Assembly (NCBI GenBank): GCA_044892525.1
Contig: CM097885.1
Coordinates: 126,542,001-126,606,000, forward strand
DNA: 64,000 nt
Origin: Schmidtea polychroa
Lineage: Eukaryota
Direction: 5' to 3'
The first letter of the stretch is position 1; each line of letters begins with the position of its first letter. Of this stretch, positions 3,937-64,000 are shown piece after piece. The notes below the pieces were generated by a model that made no database searches, was not told the DNA's origin, and worked only from the letters and a program-made list of their open reading frames with translations. The position numbers and the translations under genes are program-made.

Positions 3937-4525
3937 TTACGAACTGGTGTTATGGTAGATTGGGCGATTGGACGATGGTTGAGGAGATTCTTTATGGTTT
4001 AGTCTGGGTGAGCTTGTGGTTTGGATAACATTGGTTATTTCGGCTGGGTTTTGTACGGTGGCTCTGGATTTCGAGCTCTGACATTTTTTCTTAACTTCGA
4101 GGATTTTTAGGAAGGTTATGAGGCATAACAAGATAGTTTCTGCGATCACTACGTAGAGAAGGTAGTGGGTGTCGCTGTTATTTGAGGGTGTTTCTGTTGT
4201 CTCGGCCGGATTTTCGAACACTTCTTGTTGTATTTGTTGTTCCAACTGATCGAAGTGTTGGACTTGTTCGAGTATTTTTCGGTCCATCATTCGGCATATG
4301 GGGTGATTTTTGCACAGACTTCTGACGTTATTAACATATGACCGAGTTGACTGGATACTGTGGAGGATGTTGGTTTTGGCAAGGTTCTGGTTTGGCTTTT
4401 TGGTTTCGATTGCGGTGATCTCGTATGCTTGTCAGTTGAGCGTTTAATTGTTGTTTCTCCATCAGGTGATTTATCAATACCATTACCGTTATCACGATTC
4501 CATACCGCATTGTACTAATATACAT
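3937..4525 (-). pseudogene. Probable single type-I membrane protein gene split by a frameshift near 4435
   Basis: ORF 4331-4525 starts with a hydrophobic signal-like segment; the frame of ORF 3937-4290 is open back to 4431 and contains TM YLLYVVIAETILLCLITFLKIL; no AT-rich spacer separates the two ORFs. Confidence 0.5.
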
Positions 4526-4564
4526 CTATTATTATTATATTATTTACACTGGCTTTAATTGCTT

Positions 4565-5269
4565 TTAGTTAGATGGTTCTCCTTTGGGATTATTTTCGGC
4601 ATTTCTCATCAGGGTAGATTCCGCTTCAATGACCCGGTGTCTTAATTCCGGCATCATCTCTAATTGCCGATCCTTTTCACGGGCTTCCCTTTTTAGGTGT
4701 CTTATCTCCCTTTTTAGTTTGCTTATTTCTTCTCGTTTCTTTACGAGATTTCTTCTTAACTCGATTTGTAGGAAGTCTTGTTCGTTCTCTTGTGGAGGGT
4801 TTCGTTGTTGTTGTTGTCTCTCGATTTCTTTGTATTTGCGGATCCATTTTTTCATTTTTTCACTTTCTCTTTGTTTTTCTTCCAATTGTTGATTTAATTT
4901 ATTTATAGTTGTTTGGCGTTCTTTCACCTCTGTTTTCCAGTAGTCTTGGATTACTTCTTCTGCTTTGAAGCTTGCCCTTTCTTGCCATAATTCCTCTGCA
5001 ATCCTTTCCCAATTTCTTCCTCGTGTTCGTTGTTCCTGCAGCCATTCATTTCTCTCTTCTGCTTCTCTCTTTACTTTTCCTAGCACTTTGCATTCTTTCT
5101 TTAATACTTTAATCATTTTCCGGTCTTCCATATATTTGTTCACTAATCTCTCGTTTTCCCGTTTCTCTTCTCGTAATTCTTTCGATAGTATTTGTGTTTC
5201 TGTGACTTCCATTATAATTTCTCCTTCTTCTACTTCACTCATGGGTTCAACTATCTCTTCAATTTTCAT
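4565..5269 (-). CDS. Coiled-coil accessory protein (234 aa)
   Basis: ATG after ATTATAG|AT; E/K/R-rich heptad-like sequence. Confidence 0.75.
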   Translation of the reverse strand: MKIEEIVEPMSEVEEGEIIMEVTETQILSKELREEKRENERLVNKYMEDRKMIKVLKKECKVLGKVKREAEERNEWLQEQRTRGRNWERIAEELWQERASFKAEEVIQDYWKTEVKERQTTINKLNQQLEEKQRESEKMKKWIRKYKEIERQQQQRNPPQENEQDFLQIELRRNLVKKREEISKLKREIRHLKREAREKDRQLEMMPELRHRVIEAESTLMRNAENNPKGEPSN

Positions 5270-5438
5270 ATCTATAATATTTACAATTAATCATGCGCTA
5301 CAGTGCGACTTATACTTATACATTTATATCGTTTTTATTTACACAGGGTTACAGTCCCTCAAATACTTTTACTATACTATTAATTTTTTTGTTTGGGATA
5401 TAGTCCCAATTTTTGAATTTTGAATTTTTTATTAGCCC

Positions 5439-6612
5439 TTATACGAAGGTTTCCTCCTGACCCACATAACCTTCATCACTATCGACCGCTGGATGCAACT
5501 GTATCGCAATAGGGTCATAGGGTAGGTAATATTGGGGGATTTGAGCTCTCAATTCATTAACTTCGTCTCTTAGAGCTCGAGTGATATTCAGCTCTTCGTC
5601 GAGCAGATAAGTGAGATACCTTGTCTTTTCGTCTTTCGCCTCTACTTGTCTATCTAAGGCCTTGATTTTCTCGTCACCCTTCCATTTTTCAATTTCTATT
5701 TCCAAGTTTTTGATATTTTCGGTATACATTTTCCTCTCATTTTCTAATTTTCTATTTTTTCCCGCTAGGACCATGTTTCTTTGTTCTAACGATCCTTGTA
5801 GTCCATTAAGGTCTCTTTTCATCTCTTCGACCTGATTTACTAATTCCACAACCCGTCCTGCTTGTTGGGTTATCATCTCTTCCATTGCGGCATTCTCGTG
5901 CTCTCTTATGTCGCATTTTATTGCCAAATGTCGCTCAAACTCCATAGCCTTTGTTTGCCAGGTTTGGCTTCGGGCTGCGACCTTTTTCAACCGTTTCAGT
6001 TCTTCCTTTATTATTAAATTTTCCTCCTATTTACCCTGTTCGCTCTCATATCCGAGTCTCATGGGCAATTCTTTCATCTCTTTTTTCATTTCACTATTTT
6101 GTCTTTTCCATTTTCTCGCTTCTGCTACTAAGTGCATCATTTTCCTTCCTTCTATTTGCCTTTCCGCTTCGCGCTTGGTGTTCTCATCGGTAAGTCTCTT
6201 TCTCGCTTCCTGCACTAGCTGCTTTAAGTAGTGGCTGTGCGCTTCTTGGCGGGTATTTTCTAGTGACGCCCATTTTGATGCTCTTTTGCATGCTTCTGCT
6301 TCCGCTCTTAAGTTGTGTATTAACCATTGGTATTGACTATTCTCATCCTCTCTAGCTCCTTCGATGTGATTTCGGGTGAGATTAGTTAGTTGGAACATTA
6401 CTTTGTTCCATTTTTTGTTATGTTCTCGAGGAATTTGTGTCTTGTTGACATTGGTTGGGGCTATCGCAGTTTCGGTTAGTTTCTCTTGTGTCATCTCTAA
6501 ATCATAGACATCGATTAATCTTTTTATTATGAAAAAGGAATTTATTCATTATTTGCTGTTCCTTTGGAAATTTTCGCATCATTTTTGGGTTTACGTATTT
6601 AGGGTTTTTCAT
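5439..6612 (-). pseudogene. Long coiled-coil accessory gene broken by one in-frame TAG (6027-6029) and probably a frameshift near 6520-6545
   Basis: Track ORFs 6027-6494 and 5439-5990 share a frame (QGK*EENLIIKEELKRLKKV); an upstream ATG at 6612 (AATAATAG|TATG) opens a 36-codon frame that overlaps the start region. Confidence 0.65.
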
Positions 6613-6688
6613 ACTATTATTATATAATATTTTATTGGTTATATACACCGATATATACAGATTATTATATACAACATTATTCGATTGG

Positions 6689-8077
6689 TTACTCCGTTCT
6701 ACCCTTCTCCTCTTTCCTCACGGTCATCTTGATATACACCGTGTCATTTCTTGCCATATCTTCTACTTTTTGTTGTAGGATGAACGTAGGTGCTCCTGTT
6801 GCTGATCCTTCTTCTTCCGTAGGTCTCTGGTAACACATTTGGTTTCCCGTTGTCTTGAAGCTTTGTTCGTGGATGCTTCGGTCATTCATTAGTGCAATAT
6901 CGATTTTTGCCTGGAACGGCCACTCTATTATTTCGTCGTATTCCCCTTTACATAACAGAAAGAAAATCGAAAAGTGCGTATCTAATCCGGCTCCGTCCCC
7001 GTTGGGATATATCTTCATTTTCATTTTGTACCCATTCTTCCAAGAATGGAATGCAGGACTTGTTATTCTTGTCTCTTCTCCGGTTTTTGCTTTTCGTATT
7101 CTTTCTTTTACTCCCGTTATTTTCCATATGTAGGGTGCTGTTGGGGTTATCTCATTTAGATTTATTTCCCGTATTTTCTGATGTAGCTCCTTGGCCTGAT
7201 TATTACTGATTTCTATTCGGTTTATTTGCATCTTTATGTTTGCTCGGGCTTCCTCGAACGCTTCCCTTTCTTCTAGTAGTTCTTTGACTAACACTTTCAA
7301 CGATGTTATCTCTATCTCCATTTGTTTTACTTTCCCTTCGCTTTCTTGTAACGCAGTCGACCACATTTCTGCGTGGGTGGAAGCATTTTCTACTAAATGG
7401 TGTGGTAACTCCCCTCGGTGTAATAGTTTCTGACAACCCCATTTACCTAGTACACATGTCATTCTTTTCCTTTCACATTCCCTTAGATGCTGTGCCACCT
7501 TTATTATTTCCCCTTGGTTGCATCCGTTTGGGCATTCCCCACTGAACTCTGCACATACCATTTCTTCTTGGACATTGTGATGTTTGAGGGTGAGATTTTT
7601 CCACGTATCTATTTCTCCACAATGTTCACATCTTTCTAATCTCTCTTCACACTGCCTTTGATGTTCTTTTTCTTCGCTTGCTCGAATGGTTTTATGGCAC
7701 CTTTCACACTGGCCGATTCTGTACATACATTCTCCCATATGTTGTACTACCTTCCAGATTACTCCTTTCCATTCGCATGGGGCATTTTTGCATCCCAGGT
7801 TGGTGTTTAACATGTCTTTCACTGCGGCTTTATCTTCGTTAGTGTCTTCTAAACTCGATATTCGTGTTTCTTTACACACCGGGCACCACTGTGGTCTATT
7901 TTTTATTGCTTCACTGATACATTCTTTACATACTCTGCATCCACATTGAGTTTGGTGAGGTTCCTTTAACAACTTTTCACATATTCCGCACATAACATGT
8001 TTGTGTATTCTGATCGTTGTAGATTTTCGGACTTGCTCGACCATCTCTCTGAACTCTTCTCTTTGTCGTTTATCCAT
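6689..8077 (-). CDS. Intronless full-length TRAF-family protein (RING, TRAF zinc fingers, coiled coil, MATH/TRAF-C)
   Basis: CGICEKLLKEPHQTQCGCRVCKEC...CPVC; CKNAPCEWKG; YIWKI, SPAF, GYKMKMKIYPNGDG, THFSIFFLLCKGEYDEIIEWPF. Confidence 0.95.
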   Translation of the reverse strand: MDKRQREEFREMVEQVRKSTTIRIHKHVMCGICEKLLKEPHQTQCGCRVCKECISEAIKNRPQWCPVCKETRISSLEDTNEDKAAVKDMLNTNLGCKNAPCEWKGVIWKVVQHMGECMYRIGQCERCHKTIRASEEKEHQRQCEERLERCEHCGEIDTWKNLTLKHHNVQEEMVCAEFSGECPNGCNQGEIIKVAQHLRECERKRMTCVLGKWGCQKLLHRGELPHHLVENASTHAEMWSTALQESEGKVKQMEIEITSLKVLVKELLEEREAFEEARANIKMQINRIEISNNQAKELHQKIREINLNEITPTAPYIWKITGVKERIRKAKTGEETRITSPAFHSWKNGYKMKMKIYPNGDGAGLDTHFSIFFLLCKGEYDEIIEWPFQAKIDIALMNDRSIHEQSFKTTGNQMCYQRPTEEEGSATGAPTFILQQKVEDMARNDTVYIKMTVRKEEKGRTE

Positions 8078-8161
8078 TCTATAATTATATGTACATATAG
8101 TTCTTATCGATACAGGTTCGATATTTTATTTACAATTATTTACATTTAAGCTAGGTTTGGT

Positions 8162-8521
8162 TTAGGGTTCGGAAGAGTCGGCTTCGTGTCCGCTCTCCTC
8201 TCTATTCATTAGCCATTCCGACCAGTCTTCTATTTCTGTCTGTTCTGCTTCCTCCATCATTCGGTCTAGTTCAATTTCCTGTCTACGGCTATATTGGGTT
8301 ATCCTCTCTATCTCTCTTTGCATTTGTTCGATTTTCAACCTCTGGTCTTCAATTATCTTCAAATAACTAAATCCTCTATTCATACTCTCAATTAGGTTTC
8401 TGTGCATCGTCAATCCTTGTTCTTGCAAATTGGACACTAATTGTGCTAATACGGCACATTGTTGCTTCCATAATTCTTCAGTTACTGTATTGTGGTTCAT
8501 TTCGTTATTTCCTTGATCCAT
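8162..8521 (-). CDS. Small coiled-coil accessory protein (~119 aa; ATG start MDQG rather than the TTG in the track)
   Basis: First ATG at 8521 preceded by AAG|A; helical Q/E/R-rich sequence. Confidence 0.6.
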   Translation of the reverse strand: MDQGNNEMNHNTVTEELWKQQCAVLAQLVSNLQEQGLTMHRNLIESMNRGFSYLKIIEDQRLKIEQMQREIERITQYSRRQEIELDRMMEEAEQTEIEDWSEWLMNREESGHEADSSEP

Positions 8522-8681
8522 TCTTAATTTATATACACTTTTCAACTCTTATTTAAATTTAATTTTATTTTATGATTCCCGTTATTGTATAATATTGATA
8601 CCGCGCTTATATAAAGATATAGTACTGTTATATACATAAGATATACTTACTTTTTACAATTATATACAGTCATATTCCTTT

Positions 8682-11600
8682 CTATATACGTGAGTTTGGA
8701 GGGCGCTGAGCGTTCCAGGCATCCACCCACTGTTCTTGTTTGATATCACTTGGTCGTTTCACTCGATGTTGGAAATTTCTGATTCGGGTCATCTCTAGTT
8801 CTCCGCGATGTCGTTTATCTTTAATTATTTTTATTGTTCCCCCCGTTATGATTAGGAATGCCCCTGTTATTATTATTCCGCTGATCCACATCATCTGCTT
8901 CACGCTTATACTCTCTGGTTTTTCCTTGTTTGTTAATGTTGATATCGCTTCTGTACTTTTCTCGTTTCCTTTTTTGCCATTTCCTTCCATCATCTCTCGT
9001 ATTCTTGCTATTTCCTCGTTCAAACCCTCCTTTGCCATCTTTTGTATTTTTTCCATTTCTTCCTCCGAAACATAGTTGTCCTGAGCTTCCTCGCCGGTTT
9101 TCTTGTGCTTTCCTCCTTCGTCCTTTTCGTCGTGGTTTTTTCTTTTCTTTCCTCTTTTCCCCGGGTATCGTCGGCATTCTCTTTTTGATTCGTTCCTCCA
9201 GATACAAACCGTGTATTCTTTCGGCGGCTGCTGCTGCGTCACATATTGATGGCATCTCTCACCTGGTCCTAATCTTGAAATACAGACTTTGTGCTCTTTT
9301 CTAGGTTGGAGCTGCGTTATTACTACTTCACCACCTTTTCCTAGGTGTACCTCTTTTCCTTTAACGTTCGTTATTCTCTTCCCGTCCCGATTTCGGTATG
9401 CTTCTTGTATTCTTACTTCTGTTATTGGTTCTGTATCTTCATTTATTAACACTAGTCTCTGATATGCTCTCGACACACATCTTCCTAGTATGCACCTTTC
9501 TTTTAGATTCCATACCTCCTTCAGATCCCATTGCTGCTCTTGTGCTTGCTTTTTCTTTTCTTGTTTTAGTTCTTCCTCTTTGCTGTCTTGATTCTCCGCT
9601 TCTTTGGTTTCCTTTATCGTTCTCGTCCCACCGTGGGCTGTTATCATTTCTACCATTGTTAGTATGAGTATCATTACCATCATATTTGTCTCCATTTCCT
9701 TGTTGGTAAAAAGTAGGCATACCCTCTGTTTTCCAGTATTCGTCTTTTCCTCTTCCTTTGTTCGGCTTCCCGGGTTATTTTCCTCCTTTTTCATACTCGC
9801 GTCGTTATTTTCTTGATTATTCTCCTCTGATTTCTCTTTCTCTTTATTCCCGTTTCGACCTTTTTCATTATTATCGTCGTCTTTATCGTCTTTCTCTCCC
9901 CCGCTGTCGTTTAAAATGTCGTCCTCGACATTTATATCATTCAATAATCTGCGGTATGCTGTTAACACTCTGTTCCTTGCTAACTTTGCTTCGAATTCGA
10001 ACTCTTTTCTACCCGTTGCAGCATGTCTCTTTCTATTCCATTCTTTGACTAATTCTCTCAATTGAAGACGACGATGTTTTCCAATTCGTTGTTGCTCGTT
10101 TTGATTTTGCGTGAATTTGAGGTCCTCTCTATTTAAGACTATTAAGATAATTTTAGGTGTCCCCCCTTTATTTAATGTATTTTTGACCATCTCGTTTTCG
10201 CCGTTCTCGTAAAATTCGTTTACGTTTATCGCATATTTATTACTTTGCGGCACTCTCCATGTTAACAATAATTTCATTGCTTCTAGATTTTTTCGTACCG
10301 TATTCCACTGGAATTGGGATGTATTTTTGCATATATTTTCCACTTCTTCCTTTGTCGCATTTTTGCAGATGAATCTGATCATTTCTAGGTTTGGCTGAAT
10401 GGTTGCCCAGTCCATTGTGGAATTTCCTTCGTTTGACTTTTCGTCTAGTCTTGATCCTGATTGATGCAGTATGTGGAGTGTTTTTGGGTGTATTTTCGTT
10501 ATAGCTGCATACATCATGGCGGTTTCGCCTTGTTCATTTTTTGCATTAGATTCTTCTCCGAAGTCTCTAAGGATTCTTATGATGGTTATTGCTCTGTTTT
10601 CTTTTGCTGCTAAAATGGCTTGTTGTAATGGTGTTCTTGAATCTTTTGTTGGTAAGGTGAATGCTAGTGGTATAAATGTTTTTATTTTTCCTATGTCTAG
10701 ATTTGTGGTCTGGTCTCTTGCGTAGGTGTGTACTGTTTTTGTTATTTTTGCTAGTATCGCTTCATCGGATAGATCTTGCATTTCTTCGAAGAATACTTCT
10801 TTAGCCTTACGTACTACTATCTCTTGGTCGGAGTTTATTGTCTTTGGTTTACTTGTTGTTGCTACATCGCTTATTATTTGATCGACTCGTTTCTCAGACT
10901 CTCTTGCTGTTATTTTCTTGATTTTTATCTTTTTCTTGTTTGAACTGTTAACGCGTTCCTCTGCCGTTAGAACTTGAATAATACTTAGGTAGTTTTCTCG
11001 AATGTTATTCATAGTTTCCATCATATATAATACACTCACGGTTTCCCAATATTTTACTTGTACCTTATCGGTAAATTGAGATATAGTTTTTTCGAAGTTG
11101 GTAATCCGTTTTCTGATTAGTTGTTCGTCTTTGTGATTTGAAAACTTTATGCCACGTTGTAGTAGTTGATTGGGAATTTCGAATAGGTGATGTCCTCTCA
11201 TCGCTTCTCTCATCAAGGTGTTTTCTCCTTTGGTAAACGTTTCGTTTATATCTACCATATAATCGTTTCTGATCGGGTTCCTCCATGCAATTAGTATTCC
11301 AGCAATTGTTATTAATTTCTCTTTGATTGCAGTTAGTAACCCGTCGTACATGTTTCCTATCTCCCTATTATCCTCGTACGATAATAGATCTACTAAGATT
11401 ATGAAGGCTTCCGCACTTTTCCCTTCGATTGCATGATGCAGTGCGTTTTTCTGATTGCGATCTTGTGTGGTTATTTTTGATCCAGTTTCAAGTAATGCGA
11501 TAATAATATCTTTAGCTTTATCCCGATTGGCTGCTATCATTAGTGGAGTGTAACCTTGGTTGTTTTCTTGATCTGTCGAAATGTTACAGTCGCGAAATGC

Positions 11601-14600
11601 TTCAATTGTCTCTAGTATTTGTTCATTATTACCAACCTTTAAAAGTTTGTGTAGTGGTGTATCTCCGTAGTGATCTGTGATTGTGAATAATATAGGCCAT
11701 TGACTTTTAACCACTCTGAGTAATGGGTGTGTTCTTTCTCTGTTCGCATAATTTTCGATCATCGTCAATAATCCTCCTAATATTTCGAAATCTAATCGAT
11801 CTTTTGCCCATCCGGGTAGTTTTATCTTTACCTCTCGTACGATTTTTTCCGCTTCCGATGGTTGTATGCCCGATCGTCCAGGGATAGGTTCTGCGAGTTG
11901 TTGCATCATGTTCATTCTGTATGTTTGCGAACGTGTGGTTAATGTTCGACCTTCCGGTTGACTGGTGGCGGTTTTTGGAATTGATTTACATCGTGCCACG
12001 TTTACGTATATTGGCCTGGTGAATGGATTATTTACCAATTTCACTCTTACATTGGTTTCGCCTACAAATAGAATCTCATATGGTCCTTTTCCGTTGCGTT
12101 GTAACTTTTTTGTGGTTCCTGGAATTAATTCCGGGGTTTCTATCATTACCCAATCACCTGTTTGAAACGTATGTTGCTTCACGTTTTTCTTTCGATCGTG
12201 TAAATCTTTATAACTTTCCTGGTAGAACTTGATATTTAATCCCGCAGTTTCCCAAATTTCTTGCATCCTTTCCTTGAATTTCGTAACATAATCGTCGATC
12301 TCCATATACTGCGATATCGGTGGTTGGTATTCCAGGTCCATTGGCATATTACATTCTCTTCCGTACATTAATTTGAATGGGCTCATTTTTGTTGATGCGT
12401 GAATCGACATTCTGTACGCCATAAGACATAGGTTTATATATTCGTCCCAATCTCGTTGGTGACGGTCGACGTAGTTTGATAACATTTGTATAAGCGTTCC
12501 ATTAAATCTTTCCGTCATCCCATTGGTTTGAGGGTGATATGGAGATGTTCTTAGTTTTGCTATTTTGAAGTAATTTGTTACTTCGCTCATTATCTCACTC
12601 ATAAAATTAGTTCCCTGATCGGTTAATATTTGTTTTGGTGTTCCATATCGGCAACATATCTCTTCTACCAAAATTTTTGCGATTGTTTTAGCTTTTTGGT
12701 CTGGCATCGCGAATGCTTCTGGGAATTTCGTAAGAAAGTCTGTAATCACTAAAATATAAACGTTCCCTCTATCCGATTCTGGTAATGGACCAACTACGTC
12801 CATGGATATCATCGTCATCGGCTCTATTGGTACGGGCATTGGCGTTAAAGGCGCTTTCCATTTTGATCCAGTATTTTTCCTGGTCGCACAAGTTAGGCAA
12901 TTTTTTACCCATTCGGTTACGTCTTCGGTTAACGTAGGCCAAAAATATTTCTGTTTCATTCTTGCTAACGTCTTTTTCGATGACATATGTCCTCCCAATC
13001 TCCCATCGTGATATTGCGTTAGTAACTCTTTTCGTCGGTTTTCCGGTATACACATTAACCTCTTCTCTCCATCCATTATCAGCAACCAATCTTTTTCTAT
13101 AATATATCGGTGTCGGTGTTTATCCATATGTTCTTTTAATTTTTGGTCTTTCGCATATGCATCCGTCTTTCCGGTTTTTACATAATCGATAATTTGTTTT
13201 AATTCCGCGTCCTCTTGTTGGTCCTTTCGCAGTTGACAGAAATCCAAATCTTCCGCTACTATTAAGCATATGCGTTGCATTTCTGAATCCACCAAATCTG
13301 GAAAAATGAATCTTGACATACAATCGGCGTTGGCATTTGCTCTTCCTGCTTTGAATTTTATAAATGGGGAATATTCTTGCAATTGCATGGCCCATCTCAT
13401 CAGTCTACTGGACGCTTCTTTATGTTGCCCTAACCACACTAATGGTTGATGATCTGTGGTTATGCATATCTCATGTCCCCATAGTAAATATCGGAAGTGT
13501 TTGATAGCTTGTATTATAGCCAATGCTTCTCGTTCTGTTACCGAATAGTTCTTTTCGTGCTTTTTGAATGTTCGACTGTAATACCCGATTACTCTCTCTT
13601 TTCCTTCATCGTCTAATTGTCCCAGAATCGCGCCTGCCGCGTACCCGCTTGCATCCGTTGCCAATAGAAATGGCTTCTTAAAATCTGGGTGTACGAGGAT
13701 AGGTGCTTCGATTAGTTTATCTCTCAGCGTTTCAAACGCCTCTTGTTGTTCCTTCCCCCAAATGAACGAAATGTCCTTCTTTACTAATTCCTGGATTGGT
13801 TTTGCAATTCCTGCATAATTTTTGATAAATTTGCGATAGTATCCGCATAATCCTAGAAATTCCTGAACTTGGGTGACAGTTTTCGGTGCTGGACATGTTT
13901 TTATTTTCTCAATGTTTCTTGGATCTGGCTCCTTTCCTTTAGCTGACACTATGTGTCCCAAAAACGTGACTTTTTCCTTTGCCCAATCGCATTTTGATGG
14001 TTTGAGTTTGAGTTTCCACTGTCTTAATCGAATAAATACGTTTCGGATATCTTCTAGATGTTGTTCAAATGTCGCTGAATAGATTAGTAAATCATCAATA
14101 TATACCATACATTGTTTGATTCCATGAGTGACAAAGTTCATACACCGTTGGAATGATGCTGGTGCATTGGTCAGTCCGAATGGCATTTTCCGGAATTGAT
14201 ATAGATCTCGTCCCAGCGTGAAAGCTGTTTTCTCTTTGTCCTCATCTTTGACTTTAATCTGCCAGTATCCACTTTTTAGATCTAAAGAAGTAAAATATGC
14301 TGCCCCTTGCAACATCAATAACATCTCATTGATGTCCGGCAATGGATAGGTATCTCTCTTGGTTACTGCGTTTAACTTCCGATAATCGATACAGAATCGT
14401 TGGGTGCCATCTTTCTTTTTTACCATGACCACTGGGAATTGCCAAGGTGAGCAACTCGGTTCGATTACTTTTGCGTCTAGCATCTTTTGTACTTCTGCTT
14501 CGGCTATTTCTTTTTGCATTTCTGCTAGCTTGTATGGTCTTAATGCAATTGGAGTTTCATCTATGAGGGGTATTGCATGTAGGGTAACATCGCATGTACC

Positions 14601-17600: not shown

Positions 17601-17747
17601 TATGTCTAATTTGTTGGGTGATGCTTGTCTGCATTCTTCTATGTCTCTCAATGAGTATTTATCTCTCATTATCATATTATCACAATCGTAGATGGTAAAA
17701 CCCGTTGCTCCACTTGTGCACAACATCCATATCATCATAGTCATCAT
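8682..17747 (-). CDS. pol: Env-Pol polyprotein: signal peptide, chuvirus-like glycoprotein, TM, aspartic protease, RT, RNase H, integrase, ankyrin repeats, second membrane module
   Basis: G: IYDC, YYCGQYSYS, GEVMYTYQC, GMYSPEDL, TM ~15945-16030. PR: DTGA at ~15318. RT: YIDD 14091-14102. RH: TDASG. IN: H-H-C-C, DVVGP, GPY. ANK: GDTPLH, GYTPLMIA, GETAMMYAA. Confidence 0.95.
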   Translation of the reverse strand: MMTMMIWMLCTSGATGFTIYDCDNMIMRDKYSLRDIEECRQASPNKLDIVRTKVTYHVYQESDFIRTQARECVVSKKVLAYYCGQYSYSTLILPGLDKEIVSIQREDCKELFRTGALKMHNGVTIHGQTGMIKTESVYVSGKVKSSDGSCNGGTYTIRGEVISGVVVIESYTVELKEYEAQFDANNYQMKTNPACRATENVCRTGVSTIIYEANTQKCRLQLLKSALFNEVKGEIYENENDEDGNDRVRMRNGKPMPPSPREKRLSTQKTPTALITDDPDLGMRFIKEKETTKCDSIVYKTNYAGIYMSRQIIDRAVGKIATEDVKLYLYANNKMDFLFHRGQTTLQKVYYDLIQNDCSLNKEILKTKLAIAITHPDNTMPSLPLPDGHFGRMVGEVMYTYQCTKTYARMPEKSILPEKRCANELEIRYKGQNRFVQPVTRIMNPVGFYPNLFNCSNAYGPLYERPDGKWMMLPGKTIFEEPKKFGLIELATELDFKPIDVSNGGMYSPEDLETARLNVLFPARRESILSNMVTITGGTNYQSGPNYELLLSPDHFQQATSNMMKAMWGRFLVFGQMMAGILGIILIIQIVRVILTQMLACFDIYNREKKVNWKMIVGFLPFLAKTMVLHGHSKDIHRIKRLIKILTKIKGTDEEVGRRFRKVMYDEATRRQLKKNKQKFLDRFRSQSSNSDSDDDDNGNDKCLYPNRNPNEKPMETAPYWEKEKTNTWIANGSYIPPDIVGPQAALTMTQNMYPQLPSQPGMHYMPTRRTKSVDQADDVRTIAAMSLPGGPAVTVMIQINGKETNAMIDTGANVSAIAINQIPSKHWKDIESTTIHIIACSKETVDVVGRWWTTLRYQDNEIETYLAVIPKLSVPCIIGTDLMPELLKEMVIDLTTMCLKDKTGRICKMNAIIRCPEKIVVPAKSQMICQIKVDTGMEGEVIFEPSKSFEKRRELPLAREIITINQEGVIPLNITNFEEEDKIIYENEKLGRLTPMIDIELPKVTNEMIKDDELWTIDSMLLTNDEKKKLHRLLVEYKDIFAISDLDLGTCDVTLHAIPLIDETPIALRPYKLAEMQKEIAEAEVQKMLDAKVIEPSCSPWQFPVVMVKKKDGTQRFCIDYRKLNAVTKRDTYPLPDINEMLLMLQGAAYFTSLDLKSGYWQIKVKDEDKEKTAFTLGRDLYQFRKMPFGLTNAPASFQRCMNFVTHGIKQCMVYIDDLLIYSATFEQHLEDIRNVFIRLRQWKLKLKPSKCDWAKEKVTFLGHIVSAKGKEPDPRNIEKIKTCPAPKTVTQVQEFLGLCGYYRKFIKNYAGIAKPIQELVKKDISFIWGKEQQEAFETLRDKLIEAPILVHPDFKKPFLLATDASGYAAGAILGQLDDEGKERVIGYYSRTFKKHEKNYSVTEREALAIIQAIKHFRYLLWGHEICITTDHQPLVWLGQHKEASSRLMRWAMQLQEYSPFIKFKAGRANANADCMSRFIFPDLVDSEMQRICLIVAEDLDFCQLRKDQQEDAELKQIIDYVKTGKTDAYAKDQKLKEHMDKHRHRYIIEKDWLLIMDGEKRLMCIPENRRKELLTQYHDGRLGGHMSSKKTLARMKQKYFWPTLTEDVTEWVKNCLTCATRKNTGSKWKAPLTPMPVPIEPMTMISMDVVGPLPESDRGNVYILVITDFLTKFPEAFAMPDQKAKTIAKILVEEICCRYGTPKQILTDQGTNFMSEIMSEVTNYFKIAKLRTSPYHPQTNGMTERFNGTLIQMLSNYVDRHQRDWDEYINLCLMAYRMSIHASTKMSPFKLMYGRECNMPMDLEYQPPISQYMEIDDYVTKFKERMQEIWETAGLNIKFYQESYKDLHDRKKNVKQHTFQTGDWVMIETPELIPGTTKKLQRNGKGPYEILFVGETNVRVKLVNNPFTRPIYVNVARCKSIPKTATSQPEGRTLTTRSQTYRMNMMQQLAEPIPGRSGIQPSEAEKIVREVKIKLPGWAKDRLDFEILGGLLTMIENYANRERTHPLLRVVKSQWPILFTITDHYGDTPLHKLLKVGNNEQILETIEAFRDCNISTDQENNQGYTPLMIAANRDKAKDIIIALLETGSKITTQDRNQKNALHHAIEGKSAEAFIILVDLLSYEDNREIGNMYDGLLTAIKEKLITIAGILIAWRNPIRNDYMVDINETFTKGENTLMREAMRGHHLFEIPNQLLQRGIKFSNHKDEQLIRKRITNFEKTISQFTDKVQVKYWETVSVLYMMETMNNIRENYLSIIQVLTAEERVNSSNKKKIKIKKITARESEKRVDQIISDVATTSKPKTINSDQEIVVRKAKEVFFEEMQDLSDEAILAKITKTVHTYARDQTTNLDIGKIKTFIPLAFTLPTKDSRTPLQQAILAAKENRAITIIRILRDFGEESNAKNEQGETAMMYAAITKIHPKTLHILHQSGSRLDEKSNEGNSTMDWATIQPNLEMIRFICKNATKEEVENICKNTSQFQWNTVRKNLEAMKLLLTWRVPQSNKYAINVNEFYENGENEMVKNTLNKGGTPKIILIVLNREDLKFTQNQNEQQRIGKHRRLQLRELVKEWNRKRHAATGRKEFEFEAKLARNRVLTAYRRLLNDINVEDDILNDSGGEKDDKDDDNNEKGRNGNKEKEKSEENNQENNDASMKKEENNPGSRTKEEEKTNTGKQRVCLLFTNKEMETNMMVMILILTMVEMITAHGGTRTIKETKEAENQDSKEEELKQEKKKQAQEQQWDLKEVWNLKERCILGRCVSRAYQRLVLINEDTEPITEVRIQEAYRNRDGKRITNVKGKEVHLGKGGEVVITQLQPRKEHKVCISRLGPGERCHQYVTQQQPPKEYTVCIWRNESKRECRRYPGKRGKKRKNHDEKDEGGKHKKTGEEAQDNYVSEEEMEKIQKMAKEGLNEEIARIREMMEGNGKKGNEKSTEAISTLTNKEKPESISVKQMMWISGIIITGAFLIITGGTIKIIKDKRHRGELEMTRIRNFQHRVKRPSDIKQEQWVDAWNAQRPPNSRI

Positions 17748-17768
17748 TAACGAATTTATTGATGCTTT

Positions 17769-20700
17769 TCAGCTTGCTGGGTCTTTCATGGGTAGTTCCC
17801 ATTCTAGTTCATTCAACAACTTCTTCAATCTAACTTGCATCGACCTTTCTTGCTCATTTTTTCGTGGCGCTTGTATCAGTCTTTTCCATCCTCCGGCACG
17901 AATAATATGTGGTTCAATAGTATTCTCTATGATTGAAACGGTTATTTCCACGTGATTTGCAAATTGTTTATTTGGTATTTTCCTCGCAGCTAGTCCCATT
18001 AAATTATACATCAAATAAGTGATTACCACTAGATGATGTTCGTCATCATTTGCATTTGTCGTGAGCTGTTCGATCACTCTCTTCGTTTCGTCCCAATCTG
18101 TTTTGGTGGTTTTCGTTTTCTCTTTGATTAACTTTGGGATTATCCCCGAAACGATGTGCCATAATTGTCTAGCTTCCGTACTGGCTACTTTCCGTTGCCA
18201 CAAACGTCTAAGTTGTGGGTTTGTTATTATTAACATATCTTTGATCAATTCTCGTATCCATTTTTCTCCTCTTTCAATCGTGGGTTGGGCTTCCTTTAGA
18301 TCCCATACTATTTTATCCAATTTTTCTAATCGAGCTTGCCCTTGTTCTTGCTTTAATTGTTCTTTGGTTTTGAACTCAGACTTTTCTCCTTGTTTCTTAG
18401 GTCTTCCTTTTGCCCGTTTTTCCATCATCGTTCCGGCTTCCCTGGTATTTTCGTAATTCGGATTTCTTTCGTTATCCGTTCTGGGTAATGAGCTATCGTT
18501 ATTTCTTAGCCACTCATTCCATTCGTCTATTATTTTATCGGTTTGACCTTCTGGTGTTACTTTCGTTGGTTCTCTTTGCTTCTGGAATTGTTCATCCGTT
18601 TCGGTTTCCGTAGTGTTGTCGATGATTTCTTTGATGTTTAGTTTCGTTGGTTGTTGATAACTCGTTGATGGCTGGTTATTAGTCCACATTTCGGCTCCTG
18701 TCGGCCATCTCACTAATAGCGGTGATCTTTCTCCTGGTTCATCGTCACTATCTTCCAGGATTATCTCTTCAACTTCTTCAGTTTCATTAGATTTACTTGG
18801 TGCTTTGTTCGGACTTGGAGTACTCAAACTGCCTTTTGTTGGTTTAGTAATTTTACTTTTCCTTTTTAACGGTTTCCCCAACGTTTCTGCCATTGTTAAT
18901 ACATTTGTCTCTTCCAATCTCATGGGTGTTATTCCGACGTCTGCATTATCGTCTAGTGACTTTCCGAATAGTTGCAGATGGAATGGAGTTTCATATGCTA
19001 ATTTCTTTTTTAATTCTCTAATTTTTGTTGTTGGATGCACCTCTAGTTCCTCGATGCTCTTGTCCGGATACTTGGTTCGGATGTGATACCTCTCCTGAGT
19101 GTCTTGTGCCCATTCCTGATTTCTCCATTTTCGAATAATTTGTTCTAGCTGTTCTGGATACCATTCATTATATTGCCTGTATTCCTCTATTGCCTTTGCC
19201 ATTCCTCTCAGATTGTGGATGTTCTCTGATGTTTTTAAGATGATGTTAGCCAACGCTACTACTTGGCGTTTTTGATTTTTCGCTCCCATTGCTAAGATAT
19301 CGCCTAATTGTTTATATCTTTCTTTCTCTTCTCGTTCTCTTGCTTCCGTCGCTTCCTCGCCGTCCATATCAGCATATTCACGTTCCTTTTTTCTCATTGC
19401 ATGAATATGTCTCGCTTCATTTTCGCTTTCTGATGTGACACCCGTCTCGCCTTCGTCATCTGATGTCTGTCCCCTTGCTTCCTCTTCATATTCTGGAGGT
19501 TCCTCTTCTTCTTCCTCCGATTCACTTCCTGTCTCACCAATGTCTGTTTCTACGAAGATTCCTTTCTGGATTTCCCATTCCTTATTTTCTGCATTCCACA
19601 CTCTTTCCCATGGGGTTCGTCTGCAGGATCTGGTACTTAGTTTCGTGATTTTTCCTTGTAGTTCTTTTTCTTTTAACCATTGTTGGTGGATTTCAATTAT
19701 TTCTGTAGATTTTTGATATAACGTTTTCATCCGGTCCCGTATTTCTTTTTGATAGGTTACATCTCTTGTTCGAAATTCATCCATTGGTACTATCCTGATT
19801 ATCTGATGATTGTCCCACATACCCATTTCGCTTAACGAGGTGTCGTCTTCCGCTCGTAATATTATTTTATCGTACATCATGACTACATCATCCACCATAC
19901 CATCACTACTTTCGCTACGTACCTTTTCCGTTATCTCTTGGTTTATCTTTGATACCAAGTCATCCACTGTACTCTGATTGCTCATTGTTATTCGTCGTTT
20001 TTCTTCGTTCGGTAACCATATGGTTATTTCCAACCTCTGTGGCTGGGTTTCTTTTAACCTTCCATATTTGTGGATTAAATTTATGGTTCTCCAATCACTC
20101 ATCCGGAGCATTTCTGTATCTCGCAATCGGCTCATTAGTTCGTACATGGCTGGGGCTCGTCTGGTGATGAGTAAATCCCAGTTGTCTTCCACTTGTTCTT
20201 GAATTTGTTTGATCAGCTTATCCAGGTTTCGTCTCAGAGTACATTGTTTTATTTGTTCTAATTTCAATTTGATATTAAAATCATATTCTGCCTTGGCATC
20301 TTTAGCCCAATCGTAAAGGTTGGCTGGTTGTTTTTCTTTATGCAACTTCAGTATTTGCGTTTCTCCTGGCCATATTAGTGCATCTACTAAGTGCATATCT
20401 GGTTTGATCTGTTCTCCTTGGTATTGATACAGATATTCTTTCTTTCTCGAACTTCCCAAATGTTCCCGTATCCAATCGAAAAGTTCGTCGGTGACTGTAT
20501 TTTTTATCCACATTCTTTCAAGTCCTCTACTCGTTCCGATTTTTATTACATACCGCGTAGTATCTGCCTGCTTCATTTTTTCCATATACTTTTTTATAAT
20601 TGATTTTTCCTCGTTTGGTATTAGGTCTTTCTCGTTTCTTTCCAATTTCATCACTTTTTGTACGAATCGTCTGAATGGTATTATATCGATGAATTCTTGG

Positions 20701-22550
20701 TTCCTCACTACTACTGGGAGTATTTCAGCTACTTGTTTTATCGCTTCCTCCCTCTCTTTTCTCAACTTTATTTCAATATCCTCGTCTTCACTTTCACTGG
20801 TTATCTCGCTTTCGCTTTCTTCTTCTTTGATTTCCCCTTTTGGTGGTTCGCTTATTTCATTTAGCTGTAGTATTTCTCCACCCAAACTACTTACATAGTC
20901 TTCTCCTTCGTCTGACGATGCTACATCTTTTGTCCTTTTCATCATATTGATTTGCAAATTTCTCATCCTTGGTACTCTCTTTAGTTTCTTTCTTTCGAAT
21001 ATCGTTGTTTCTTCTGATTCTAATTCTTGTAGCACTTGGTGGTTTAGTTGACTGGTTTGTTCCTTGCTCTTGTTATTTTCGTCTTCTGTCTCAGTTTTCG
21101 CTTTATTATGTTCTTTTTCGATTTTATCTTTTATCTTTTTCCAGAATATTTTCTGAATTCTCTGGTTTCCTTTTAAAATCGTGGTTGAATTCTCTGTTTT
21201 CATTCCCGTTGTTGTTTCTTTTACCTTTTCTGGTTCCGTCATGGGTACTACCCTTGGGTTTTTCCCGTAATTGTAACAATACTGGCTCTTCATGTCTTTT
21301 ACTAACTTCATCATATTTATTCGCAATGGTTGTTCTTGTCGTTGTTGGTTGCGTTCTTGTTTTATCCTCTCTTCCTCGGCCTGTAGTCTTTGCCATTCTT
21401 GTACATGTTGATGTACTTCATAATTGTTGAGATTTTCGGTGCTCCTCATCATACGTATATTCTGGGTTTGTTGTGGTGCTGGTTCTTGTCTTGGTCTCAT
21501 CATTTGTTGCATCATCTGTTTCATCTGCGAGATTTCCTGCATAACGTTCATTTGTTTTCCTTCGCTAGGGTTGCTTTGTCGTTGCGGATTCACCATATAA
21601 TTATTATTTCGCGGTAGTGGTCGTTGTCGTTGGCCCCTTTCTCGGCAATCTCTGGAGATGTGACCTGGCTGACCACAGTTAAAACAACCTCGCAATTGGC
21701 ATACATTTTCGGTATGTCCACGCCGTCCGCAACGATTACAATTTGAATTTCTATAACAATCTCTGTCCCAGTGTCCTGGTTTACCGCATGTTCGGCACTG
21801 CTTGTTATCGTTCATATTTCGTCGATTATTAAAATTGTTCTCATTATTCAGGTTGCTACGATTACCATTATTCCCATTTGGTCGTCCTTGTGGTGGTTTA
21901 AAAATTTGATGCGCTCCTGGTATAAATTGATTCATTTTCGGTTCTTGATTGTTGTTATCTCCGTTATCTGCTTTCGCTATTGCTGTCGCTATCCTTCCCT
22001 CCTCTTGCATGATGTTCATTTGGGCTGGAAGGTGGAGCTCGCATCTTGTAGCCCAATCTATGGCTTCCTCTAATGTTTTGCACATTTGACAACCTACTGA
22101 GGCTCTTACCTCTTCTCGGCGTAATCCCTCTATGAAATAGCCAATCAGGTTTTCTTCGGTTAATTTTCCATTCATTGCTTTCTTCGCTAATCTCCGCAAT
22201 TCACTGGCGTATAATGTTATCGATTCGTTCGCTCTTTGTTTCCTAGTTGCTAGTTCGCCCAACGCCTGGTTGATTGGCTTACTGGCTCCGAAGGTTTTCT
22301 GCAGGAATGTTTTGATATCTTCCCATTTTTCTAATTTCGTATCTCTCTCTTTAGCTTCTAAATAAACTTCTAATGCGCTATCGCACAAAAACAACGGCAT
22401 CCTTTTACTAATTGCTTCGGGTGTCCATCCACACACAGTGATATAAACTTCAAAATTAGTTATGAACGTTGCTAACTTGTTTGCGTTTCCGTTGAATGGT
22501 TCTCCTCTGAACTTCTCTTTATACTCGTCGGTTTTTACGACATTCGTCAT
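17769..22550 (-). CDS. gag: Gag polyprotein with a long accessory extension (capsid, 3 CCHC knuckles, 3 ubiquitin-like domains, Bcl-2-like C-terminus)
   Basis: Retrotransposon capsid motifs (RKQRANESITLYASELRRLA); CRTCGKPGHWDRDC, CNRCGRRGHTENVC, CFNCGQPGHISRDC at ~21645-21797; HIIRAGGW near the C-terminus. Confidence 0.92.
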   Translation of the reverse strand: MTNVVKTDEYKEKFRGEPFNGNANKLATFITNFEVYITVCGWTPEAISKRMPLFLCDSALEVYLEAKERDTKLEKWEDIKTFLQKTFGASKPINQALGELATRKQRANESITLYASELRRLAKKAMNGKLTEENLIGYFIEGLRREEVRASVGCQMCKTLEEAIDWATRCELHLPAQMNIMQEEGRIATAIAKADNGDNNNQEPKMNQFIPGAHQIFKPPQGRPNGNNGNRSNLNNENNFNNRRNMNDNKQCRTCGKPGHWDRDCYRNSNCNRCGRRGHTENVCQLRGCFNCGQPGHISRDCRERGQRQRPLPRNNNYMVNPQRQSNPSEGKQMNVMQEISQMKQMMQQMMRPRQEPAPQQTQNIRMMRSTENLNNYEVHQHVQEWQRLQAEEERIKQERNQQRQEQPLRINMMKLVKDMKSQYCYNYGKNPRVVPMTEPEKVKETTTGMKTENSTTILKGNQRIQKIFWKKIKDKIEKEHNKAKTETEDENNKSKEQTSQLNHQVLQELESEETTIFERKKLKRVPRMRNLQINMMKRTKDVASSDEGEDYVSSLGGEILQLNEISEPPKGEIKEEESESEITSESEDEDIEIKLRKEREEAIKQVAEILPVVVRNQEFIDIIPFRRFVQKVMKLERNEKDLIPNEEKSIIKKYMEKMKQADTTRYVIKIGTSRGLERMWIKNTVTDELFDWIREHLGSSRKKEYLYQYQGEQIKPDMHLVDALIWPGETQILKLHKEKQPANLYDWAKDAKAEYDFNIKLKLEQIKQCTLRRNLDKLIKQIQEQVEDNWDLLITRRAPAMYELMSRLRDTEMLRMSDWRTINLIHKYGRLKETQPQRLEITIWLPNEEKRRITMSNQSTVDDLVSKINQEITEKVRSESSDGMVDDVVMMYDKIILRAEDDTSLSEMGMWDNHQIIRIVPMDEFRTRDVTYQKEIRDRMKTLYQKSTEIIEIHQQWLKEKELQGKITKLSTRSCRRTPWERVWNAENKEWEIQKGIFVETDIGETGSESEEEEEEPPEYEEEARGQTSDDEGETGVTSESENEARHIHAMRKKEREYADMDGEEATEAREREEKERYKQLGDILAMGAKNQKRQVVALANIILKTSENIHNLRGMAKAIEEYRQYNEWYPEQLEQIIRKWRNQEWAQDTQERYHIRTKYPDKSIEELEVHPTTKIRELKKKLAYETPFHLQLFGKSLDDNADVGITPMRLEETNVLTMAETLGKPLKRKSKITKPTKGSLSTPSPNKAPSKSNETEEVEEIILEDSDDEPGERSPLLVRWPTGAEMWTNNQPSTSYQQPTKLNIKEIIDNTTETETDEQFQKQREPTKVTPEGQTDKIIDEWNEWLRNNDSSLPRTDNERNPNYENTREAGTMMEKRAKGRPKKQGEKSEFKTKEQLKQEQGQARLEKLDKIVWDLKEAQPTIERGEKWIRELIKDMLIITNPQLRRLWQRKVASTEARQLWHIVSGIIPKLIKEKTKTTKTDWDETKRVIEQLTTNANDDEHHLVVITYLMYNLMGLAARKIPNKQFANHVEITVSIIENTIEPHIIRAGGWKRLIQAPRKNEQERSMQVRLKKLLNELEWELPMKDPAS

Positions 22551-23209: not shown

Positions 23210-23918
23210 CTAAAATGAAAAAATGATCTCGTGTTGCATCTGCTTACACGACTTCATCATTCTTTCTGCAACATTCAAACACAGACACCTTTTAGGTTCT
23301 GTTTATGCTTCCCCTATTTTTTATGCAATTACTTCCGCGGGTTATAATCTCCCATCAGCCCGAATTTTTCGTCGATTTTAAATTATCTATATGGGGTAGT
23401 AACAAATATCTATATGGTCGTATAAATTATCTATAGTTATCACTTATAATATCGATAGGTCGTTGTCGGTCTCTGCTTATTACCCCCCTTTCATTTTCCT
23501 AATCCTTTTGCGCTGTTGTCGCTATTTTACTTTTTATATTTACTATCATTCCACTCGGTCCTACTCTGGAACCAATAAAATGCATTTTCCCGGTTTAACC
23601 CAAAACAAAATATTCCGTAGAGTTTCTCTACTTCACTGGGATCCCTTTAATTAGTTGGTTACTTTCCTCTTCTACTCGTTATCATCATTTCACGTATTCT
23701 TTATTTTCCATTATCTTTTAATTCATTTCCTTCTTCCCTTTCCTTTTCCGTCATAATCTCATTATCTTTTCCACGAGCTCGTTTATTTCCTCTCTAAACT
23801 CAAATTTTCGTAATTACATTCAATTTGTTTCTAGCTAGCTTTAATATTCCCTTTCTCTACTAATTCAGATATTAGCTCATTGTAGCTTAACTGCTATCTC
23901 TCGCTTTTCTAGGCCTTT

Positions 23919-24243
23919 ACGACTGGCTGGCACTATTCAACAGCTCAATCTTCTTCCTTCTGACCGGTTGAACTATTCGACAACTCGATCTTACGACTGG
24001 CTGGCACTATTCAACAGCTCAATCTTCCTCCTTCTGATCGGTTGGACTATTCGACAACTCGATCTTACGACTGGCTGGCACTATTCAACAGCTCAATCTT
24101 CCTCCTTCTGATCGGTTGGACTATTCGACAACTCGATCTTACGACTGGCTGGCACTATTCAACAGCTCAATCTTCCTCCTTCTGATCGGTTGGACTATTC
24201 GACAACTCGATCTTACGACTGGCTGGCACTATTCAACAGCTCA
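23919..24243. repeat. 74-bp tandem repeat, ~4.4 copies, in the 5' leader
   Basis: Units start at 23919, 23993, 24067, 24141 and 24215; each unit is a dimer of related halves sharing GGxTGG-ACTATTC-ACA-CTC-ATCTT. Confidence 0.95.
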
Positions 24244-24847
24244 GTTTTCGTTTCCCTTGACCGGCTGGACTATTTACAGCTCGGCTTTAACATTCTTTAC
24301 TCTGCATGCTTCTACTTCTCTTTTCTTCTTTTACTCAAGATTACTATTTTCTCGGTCTACTTTTAATTTGTTGACTTAATCTTTACCGCTCGGGAGTGTG
24401 TCCCCTTTCCCCCCTTGATCGAAACGCACGACGATCGCGATGATCCATTTCTACATTGGCATGGTGATCAGTCATGCCGCAGAAACTTCTCATCATTTGC
24501 GATGGTACCCCGCCCTACGCTCCTCACTTAGGTTGATCGGTTATTCCCTCCCAATTGGTTTTATCGTATGATAGAACGTACCGCCCTAAGGTGGCTCGGT
24601 TTGTACCCTTACAGCCTATATTGGGACTAGTTCCACGTTAGTTTAGTTCTCTTTTCGTTTGATTCAAAAAAAAATAAAATAGAATTAAAAGCCATGGATT
24701 ACTCAGCTTATAACAAGAGTTTATTTGCCATAAAAATAAAAATAAAATTAAGACTTTAATAATATTTCACACAACAATTACATTTATTCTCATTCAATCG
24801 TCAGTATCAATTCGATGTTCATAAATGTCATTAAATCTTTAACACTT

Positions 24848-25324
24848 TTATTCGCCATAATAAACCATATGAGTCTCTTTTATCTCGTGCTTACATATTG
24901 TGCACCGTTTTAGATCGTTTACACATTCTTCGCAGTGACTGAGGTGTCCACAGGGCAAGAACAGTACGCGAATAGGACGAAGTTTGCAGGACAGACAGGT
25001 TCGTAATTTAGTGAGCTTTTCTTGTATCTTCTGTTCGATTATGTCGGATATAATATCTAATTGATCTCGTAGTCGATGATATTCTAGATTCAATCTCAAT
25101 CTTTCCTGATACCACTGATATATGGTTTCATGATTCACTTTACTATCTGCACGACTTAGGCCTATGGCTAATAACATATGGTTAGGTACGATTGGTGCTT
25201 GTCCCATTGTTTGTAGTTGTATGCTCCTAATTCTCTCTCTTTTCTGTGTAAGCGTTTTTATGGGATCGTTTTCTATATCAACGAAGTTGCTTAGTTGTTT
25301 CATCAGTTCTGTGAATTCTGTCAT
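24848..25324 (-). CDS. Coiled coil plus C-terminal IAP/MDM2-like RING-HC protein (158 aa), upstream of gag
   Basis: CLSCKLRPIRVLFLPCGHLSHCEECVNDLKRCTICKHEIKETHMVY at the extreme C-terminus; acceptor TTTTCCAATAG 2 nt before the ATG. Confidence 0.85.
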   Translation of the reverse strand: MTEFTELMKQLSNFVDIENDPIKTLTQKRERIRSIQLQTMGQAPIVPNHMLLAIGLSRADSKVNHETIYQWYQERLRLNLEYHRLRDQLDIISDIIEQKIQEKLTKLRTCLSCKLRPIRVLFLPCGHLSHCEECVNDLKRCTICKHEIKETHMVYYGE

Positions 25325-29056: not shown

Positions 29057-29144
29057 ACTTACCTAATGTAGTGGTTAGATGAACGGTAATTGTTATGATT
29101 TTAGTGTCTGCTTATATATTAGTTTTCTATTTATGCGGACCAAT
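29057..29144 (-). promoter_or_regulatory. LTR promoter (CCAAT box, TATA box) followed by a short first exon and a GTAAGT splice donor
   Basis: CCAAT 29140-29144, TATATAAG 29111-29118, AG|GTAAGT with G at 29062; same motifs in the 3' LTR at 2239-2326. Confidence 0.6.
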
Positions 29145-63947: not shown

Positions 63948-64000
63948 AAATTTTTTAATACTTATTTTGCACGTGTTGATAAAATAGTTGGATTTGATAA

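Follow-up and report, generated by a model that had tools for sequence, protein, structure and literature searches.

A window of 64,000 nucleotides from Schmidtea polychroa (assembly GCA_044892525.1, contig CM097885.1, positions 126,542,001 to 126,606,000) carries on its minus strand a Ty3/gypsy retroelement with an envelope gene, which is close to certainly a defective copy of a Burro-type element. Along with Gag, Env and Pol it encodes what we refer to as cargo: a TRAF, a cIAP-type RING protein, Bcl-2-like and ubiquitin-like (Ubl) domains, two ankyrin clusters and a series of small proteins. Across copies, purifying selection acts on each cargo open reading frame (ORF) that was tested, with ratios of nonsynonymous to synonymous divergence (dN/dS) mostly between 0.06 and 0.27 and reaching ~0.5. 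On balance, we lean towards the view that the cargo represents accessory factors, likely captured host genes, whose likely effect is to dampen signalling through stress, death and innate-immune pathways in the particle-producing cell.

Identity and extent of the element

The element runs from window position 29484 to -1159, 1,160 bp to the left of the window, and is 30.6 kb long with an internal region of ~22 kb; its genes and long terminal repeats (LTRs) all lie on the minus strand. The two LTRs measure 3,826 bp each, have TG...CA ends, differ by five mismatches and are bounded at their outer ends by a 4-bp target-site duplication. The 5' LTR (25659..29484) starts as in sister copies, and the 4-bp duplication beside it recurs at the distal boundary of the 3' LTR (1..2666, continuing 1,160 bp beyond the left window edge), which was delimited by comparison with the 5' LTR and with sister copies. 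The retroelement called by the initial annotation is thereby borne out in the LTR pair, the target duplication, gag, and the order protease (PR), reverse transcriptase (RT), RNase H and integrase. The limits first given, 3937..25324, do enclose all of the listed parts on the minus strand, but they stop short of the element itself at both ends.

Read 5' to 3', the element comprises an LTR-internal ORF, the RING ORF, a repeat-bearing leader, the polyprotein, and then accessory ORFs F, TRAF, D, C, B and A. Within the polyprotein, Gag is followed by three Ubl domains, the Bcl-2-like domain, Env, PR, RT, RNase H, integrase, two ankyrin clusters and a predicted second membrane protein. The length of ~30 kb, the internal region within 20-25 kb, a polyprotein of ~4,800 amino acids (judged by family) and the set of MATH/TRAF, ankyrin, BCL2 and Ubi motifs are those of a Burro-type element.

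The window copy carries three lesions: an in-frame stop between the Bcl-2-like domain and Env (17769..17771), which splits the polyprotein; a frameshift in ORF A; and the replacement of ~217 bp at the end of the internal region. Because the stop occurs in only 1 of the 30 top-scoring copies, and is thus private, programmed read-through at the Gag/Env junction was ruled out. The 4,732-codon frame that the stop interrupts is intact in 45 of 77 scored copies (each DNA search of the 781-Mb genome, with its four large contigs, gave 324-375 first-look candidates, of which 40 were scored), and LTR pairs are 99.8-99.9% identical in all five sister copies compared. The family is large, young and high-copy.

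Purifying selection on the cargo

With the window copy as reference, selection was assessed in three sets of copies: 40 covering the 3' half, made up of 36 of the 39 further TRAF matches and 4 others; 29 covering the middle; and 29 covering the RING ORF. By variants found in at least two copies, the cargo had dN/dS of 0.08-0.26 and the linkers of 0.15-0.24, with integrase, Env and RNase H at 0.02-0.07; these counts left out codons with more than one change, and Ubl1 lies outside the tested segments. All 21 segments departed from neutrality (p <= 0.005), with zero shared stops, while variants present in a single copy, some of them stops, were nearer neutral (0.07-0.73). Pairwise comparison with the diverged lineage L091 (G000:C1:81705000-81714999) gave 0.06-0.42. 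Non-coding controls showed flat codon-phase counts and gaps out of frame; 25 apparent frameshifts in linker 1 are probably alignment gaps.

Along window positions 4565-11584, synonymous divergence from L091 is 0.1-0.5 over the polyprotein tail but reaches 1.0-1.7 over the accessory ORFs. This jump, together with lineages of ORF A that are only 41-51% identical, argues that modules have been shuffled by recombination between lineages.

TRAF and RING proteins

Downstream of the polyprotein lies an intronless, full-length TRAF of 462 amino acids (6689..8077), with RING, zinc-finger region, coiled coil and MATH domain (Pfam MATH E 3e-26, RING E 2.5e-4). Its best PDB matches are TRAF3, TRAF1 and TRAF2 (E 3e-27), the N-terminal RING-zinc finger part matches TRAF5/6 (E 1e-13), and zf-TRAF received no score in Pfam. 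Its dN/dS is 0.16, both within the family and against L091, and the protein databases searched yielded one relative among 3,442 candidates. The TRAF noted initially is therefore firm, by Pfam and PDB matches alike, and is a full-length gene of its own.

The RING ORF (24848..25324) encodes 158 amino acids with a helical N-terminus and a cIAP-type RING (zf-C3HC4_3 E 4e-11; best PDB match the cIAP2 RING, E 7e-11), and its dN/dS is 0.14-0.27 (23 of 29 copies, those with dS of at least 0.24). The Pfam scan found no BIR, the domain by which an IAP is judged, in this ORF or anywhere in the window element, so that the label "IAP-type" holds for the RING and not for the protein as a whole.

Ubiquitin-like and Bcl-2-like domains

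Three Ubl domains had been proposed, and each has weak to moderate support. Ubl1 (20331..20573) and Ubl3 (18876..19103; dN/dS 0.10) align with an independent profile built from the Ubl domains of other element families at hhalign probabilities of 66% (E 6e-5) and 72%, compared with 0.1-0.3% for nine control segments, and that profile retrieves ISG15 and ubiquitin in the PDB. Ubl1 has no Pfam Ubl match and is the second-ranked region in the profile scan; Ubl3 matches Pfam ubiquitin at E 0.01. Ubl2 (19776..20048) reaches only 2% by hhalign, has sub-threshold beta-grasp matches in Pfam, and is weakly to moderately supported by predicted structure, a low-confidence model of which resembles ubiquitin and UBX folds (Z 7.0-7.6). 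Neither Ubl1 nor Ubl2 was matched by two further profiles (A5 and A6), both dominated by the P0002 MATH domain. No C-terminal di-glycine follows the Ubl domains in the translation, and they are integral Ubl domains and not of the conjugatable-modifier form.

The Bcl-2-like domain (17826..18350; dN/dS 0.08) is divergent, with a BH2-like end retained and the BH1 motif absent. Pfam gives E 0.045, below cut-off. A six-sequence profile searched against the PDB returned Bcl-2 family members in all 60 listed rows (best E 0.01), mainly through the BH2-like end. The top structural match is Bcl-xL (Z 7.8, root-mean-square deviation 5.3) for a model with a mean predicted local distance difference test (pLDDT) score of 42; by the tool's own warning, a Z of this size can arise by chance for helical bundles. 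A single-sequence fold of the region (pLDDT 43) was set aside, and Foldseek with the alignment-based model gave nothing at E <= 0.001 (best 0.052, with rows chiefly of ubiquitin folds). The NWGR-type BH1 motif is missing from all six aligned element domains, whereas three of four host-type matches have it and the fourth has a variant. The protein databases searched contained two matches to the Ubl-Bcl-2 region. Thus the proposed Bcl-2-like domain stands on three concordant signals, from Pfam, PDB profile and structure, each of them weak and sub-threshold by itself and without BH1.

Two of the three outcomes that the initial annotation had named as speaking against it, neutral cargo and unconfirmed domains, are not what we see, because the domains are confirmed by profile or structure search, at the strengths stated, and because dN/dS across copies, a check it had asked for beforehand, shows that the cargo ORFs are not neutral.

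Other parts of the polyprotein and accessory ORFs

Gag (21645..22550; Retrotrans_gag E 2e-9) has a capsid domain and three CCHC knuckles visible in translation, compared with two stretches passing in Pfam (zf-CCHC E 6e-11). Env (15918..17747; Monjiviricetes_fusion E 1e-66; dN/dS 0.03) is a viral fusion glycoprotein in frame ahead of Pol, with a signal peptide and a transmembrane helix at residues 577-595. Pol (11958..15362) has the aspartic protease, RT, RNase H and integrase in gypsy order by Pfam (integrase dN/dS 0.02); a segment of ~90 amino acids between PR and RT, in the dUTPase-like position, is 63% identical to that of the sister family described below and has no Pfam match. Both ankyrin clusters of the initial annotation are firm, the first at 11151..11810 (Ank_2 E 1e-17; dN/dS 0.11) and the second at 10308..10700 (Ank_2 E 2e-8; dN/dS 0.09). 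The polyprotein tail (8682..9695; dN/dS 0.18) is predicted to be a second type I membrane protein, with two hydrophobic stretches laid out as signal-like stretch, ectodomain, transmembrane segment and short tail; no Pfam family reaches cut-off. A short motif recurs at several domain borders within 8682-22550, with 5 occurrences against 0.7 in shuffles for ORF1 and 3 against 1.6 for ORF2, a comparison that is circular in that the pattern was fitted after inspection. These sites may be candidate cut sites of the element protease.

The accessory ORFs include three predicted coiled coils, called from heptad patterns by a crude score with no null: F (8162..8521; 119 amino acids; dN/dS 0.26), which has a homolog in the sister family; C (5439..5945; 168 amino acids; dN/dS 0.10); and B (4565..5269; 234 amino acids; dN/dS 0.17 from shared variants, 0.42 against L091). 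ORF D (6027..6494; 155 amino acids; dN/dS 0.23 from shared variants, 0.10 against L091) occupies the position of the BIR-RING IAP in the sister family. ORF A (3937..4525) is in two frames in the window copy and encodes a small predicted surface protein with a signal-like stretch, Cys-containing ectodomain, transmembrane segment and tail. The small membrane ORF first placed at 3937 is indeed part of a predicted membrane protein, but represents only a piece of a gene that is frameshifted and ~200-220 amino acids long; the frame of this gene extends for at least 195 amino acids in 29 of 38 copies. No gene of the element evolves faster; the dN/dS of ORF A, 0.38-0.52 in 14 of 15 pairs, gives no sign of positive selection. 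The several coiled-coil and membrane proteins noted at the outset thus hold up as predictions, in B, C and F on the one hand and in ORF A and the polyprotein tail on the other.

Origin of the cargo

Baculovirus IAPs and the ankyrin and Bcl-2-fold proteins of poxviruses are host-modulating genes of large DNA viruses, and the initial annotation had called the element's toolkit DNA-virus-style. Acquisition of the toolkit as one block from such a virus would be in keeping with the virus-type fusion protein of the element and with the TRAFs encoded by fish megalocytiviruses (PMC3352826). At the same time, the Env family is of RNA-virus type, the modules are dispersed over the element and swapped between families, and no relative was found in viral contigs by a search that detects close relatives only. 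The element TRAF, moreover, has Cys in place of the C3HC4 His in its RING, as do both other element TRAFs and all six other TRAF loci of the genome with a RING in the alignment (element genes were sought within ~1.5 kb of these six, and one has an RT fragment nearby). The list of viral TRAFs in PMC3352826, as of 2012, is confined to four fish megalocytiviruses and includes no pox-, herpes- or baculovirus. We therefore consider block transfer from a DNA virus very improbable; "DNA-virus-style" fails as a statement of origin and serves as an analogy. Because the RING signature is common to element and planarian TRAFs, the sequences favour host capture over a DNA-virus source for the TRAF.

In a tree of 38 MATH rows, the element TRAFs fall outside a large host cluster clade, and the element rows need 2-3 changes; the 22 sampled cluster loci group in a single clade with good support, separate from the element TRAFs. 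Dense clusters of MATH domains, in frames of ~190-210 codons, occupy ~105-124 Mb and 1-5 Mb of contig C2 of the genome (G000). Across the genome, Pfam Bcl-2 is matched by 136 of 150 scored candidates, many of them in dispersed near-identical sets or in frames of ~3,050 codons, a pattern that suggests Bcl-2 domains on several mobile families.

Possible function of the cargo

If the cargo dampens signalling in the producing cell, a general pathway can be sketched. The element protease would release individual proteins from the polyprotein, and each accessory ORF would be translated on its own. The TRAF and cIAP-type RING protein could then act as ubiquitin ligases or decoys at tumour necrosis factor (TNF)-receptor/Toll-type complexes, with the ankyrin clusters as adaptors, and such ubiquitin-dependent control of TNF-receptor/Toll-type signalling would keep the producing cell alive and quiet. 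Poxviral Bcl-2-fold NF-kB antagonists work as binding scaffolds, and because BH1 is absent, the Bcl-2 fold of the element is more likely to be a scaffold of this kind than a classical BH3 sink. By analogy with Drosophila gypsy, Env may carry the element onward to heritable cells. A differentiated somatic cell is a likelier producer of the particles than a stem cell: the related family BURRO1 is under double PIWI silencing in neoblasts and is derepressed in differentiated intestinal and epidermal cells upon smedwi-2 RNA interference (RNAi), as reported in the text of PMC8532177, which speaks against the stem-cell site of action suggested initially.

Several observations weigh against this proposal. 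The canonical apoptosis motifs, BH1, BIR and di-glycine, are all missing; the Bcl-2 and Ubl assignments are weak, being sub-threshold in Pfam, with a mean model pLDDT of 42; and the deep forks of the MATH tree are unresolved, so that no source of the element TRAFs emerges from it. The linkers between domains have dN/dS of 0.12-0.41 over shared-variant and pairwise estimates, near the cargo values, and selection therefore speaks for protein function but not for cell-death function. The sampled copies are the top-scoring ones by similarity, non-independent, skewed to intact relatives and drawn from few lineages. The smedwi-2 phenotype was no better after BURRO1 RNAi, and the text of PMC8532177 reports no infectious property. 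Contigs from two sequencing runs, guessed to be of RNA, lie on the element; because the type of these runs is not recorded, we do not count them as expression.

In this context, the missing motifs, the constraint on the linkers and the fusion of Ubl, Bcl-2 and ankyrin modules into a Gag-Env-Pol polyprotein would also fit folds that have been repurposed for the life cycle of the element (assembly, trafficking, ubiquitin-dependent budding or Env handling) and no longer touch apoptosis or immunity. We regard this as a serious but less likely explanation: the TRAF, encoded by a gene of its own, has kept the complete architecture for signalling, a BIR-RING IAP and two MATH domains are found in the sister family, and several modules of one pathway recur together. 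Retention of the cargo for the benefit of the host, through domestication for stem-cell survival or radiation tolerance, could draw on the unexplained expansion of planarian TRAFs with expressed members (PMC6109357), yet it strikes us as most improbable. The constraint is seen among dispersed recent insertions, with LTR pairs as near-identical as noted above, while single copies gain stops and frameshifts; the element TRAFs lie outside the large host cluster clade, and the related BURRO1 is silenced by PIWI (PMC8532177).

Dampening of host signalling thus remains the reading we prefer. A bolder version, which we offer as speculation and think rather unlikely, is that Burro-type elements are complex invertebrate endogenous retroviruses in which two fast-evolving surface proteins, ORF A and the polyprotein tail, recruit the element's own TRAF and RING proteins, forming a self-contained TNF-receptor-style switch for survival and immunity in the producing somatic cell; this would be convergent with the LMP1-type strategy of herpesviruses. 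If the preferred reading is true, retroelements would possess an accessory set like that of a large virus, in an RNAi model animal for cell death and stem-cell control. A practical caution is that TRAF and Bcl-2 sequences borne by elements number in the hundreds, and can swell counts of planarian gene families and interfere with both RNAi and the mapping of reads.

The window copy and its surroundings

An earlier reading of the LTR as 5,019 bp without a target duplication was dropped after comparison with five sister copies; it is really the 3,826-bp LTR plus a duplicated flank. The duplicate, 1,193 bp at 2667..3859, copies the host flank at 29485-30677 and has replaced the final ~217 bp of internal sequence. 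Window positions 1-3859 show zero mismatches with their flank/LTR counterpart, and all five LTR mismatches lie in the distal 1.2 kb, a pattern suggestive of an extended tract of gene conversion or repair, or else of an assembly error. The LTR-internal ORF (26225..26968; 247 amino acids; no assigned function) has a stop in the 3' LTR copy and a 35% identical homolog in L185, and its variants common to copies are concentrated at third codon positions (103/72/231). A repeat search found 4.4 copies of a 74-bp tandem unit in the leader (23917..24243).

Outside the element, an unbroken ORF of 703 amino acids on the minus strand (32349-34460; CN_hydrolase and NAD_synthase) resembles glutamine-dependent NAD synthetase and is a host gene lying 2.9 kb away from the 5' LTR. 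Terminal inverted repeats of 37 bp at 62908-63960 enclose an ISXO2-like transposase fragment (63144-63662), a small DNA transposon that we take to be Merlin-type. A run of 137 N spans 55492-55628.

Relation to known elements and viruses

The initial suspicion that some of the cargo might already be described was correct. Burro1/GYPSM1, as presented in the text of PMC6431247, has MATH_TRAF_C, BIR, ankyrin, Smc-like, BCL2-like, Ubi2/SUMO-like and dUTPase-like domains and an in-frame Env, and the hypothesis that Burro cargo tinkers with the host is in print there as well. Suggestions of this kind date from 2007-2019. The cargo type and the idea are already known, and our selection data are a modest extension; what is added is evidence of selection for each accessory gene tested and a map of differences between two sister families. 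In the open literature, subscription journals and supplements aside, we found neither functional tests nor dN/dS analyses of cargo from Burro elements, and the accessible text of PMC11410931 and PMC13238120 mentions Burro in passing only.

Compared with Burro elements as PMC6431247 describes them, the window element shares a length of ~30 kb, a polyprotein of ~4,700-4,900 amino acids, three-knuckle Gag, Ubl and BCL2-like domains, in-frame Env, PR-RT-RNase H-integrase, ankyrins, accessory ORFs and a leader tandem repeat. Unlike Burro1/GYPSM1, it has no MATH domain in the polyprotein and no BIR, and it encodes a full-length TRAF in a gene of its own 3' of pol. A Burro1/GYPSM1-type family is present in the same genome (L176-L179, G000:C1:21527500-21567499), with MATH in a frame of 4,791 codons, the same 5' RING ORF, and 3' ORFs that encode a second full TRAF and a BIR-RING IAP; it has one ankyrin Pfam stretch, compared with two clusters in the window element. 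The two are 92% identical in RT, 58% in Env, 42-45% in Ubl and 34% in Bcl-2; cargo modules are kept between them at 24-45% identity, and Ubl and Bcl-2 modules recur in three more distant families. From these sequences, the window family is the sister of the Burro1/GYPSM1-type family. One copy of the latter (L181-L183, G000:C4:59317000-59331000) is interrupted by a multi-ORF insertion with a 1,309-codon ORF and a P-loop ATPase-like ORF, possibly, at a guess from ORF starts, a Polinton-like element.

Beyond Schmidtea, the Burro-like element of Dugesia (Girardia) tigrina also has a polyprotein without MATH and a TRAF/MATH in an accessory ORF, but there the TRAF ORF lies upstream and Gag has two knuckles, whereas in the window element it lies downstream and Gag has three (text of PMC6431247). 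The HSV/gB-type GAG-ENV-POL errantiviruses of Platyhelminthes, Nematoda and Bryozoa likewise place Env between gag and pol, encode a chuvirus/gB-like fusion protein and have multiple intact copies, but the main text of PMC13524379 contains no mention of Burro or of TRAF, Bcl or ankyrin cargo. Among viruses, a parallel is offered by host-modulating genes of large DNA viruses, such as the megalocytivirus TRAF ORF111L (PMC3352826), the baculovirus IAPs and the poxvirus ankyrin and Bcl-2-fold proteins. The classes of captured domain are the same, and the selective logic is probably the same as well; no sequence link was found, the ISKNV TRAF promotes apoptosis instead of blocking it, and the carrier here is a retroelement.

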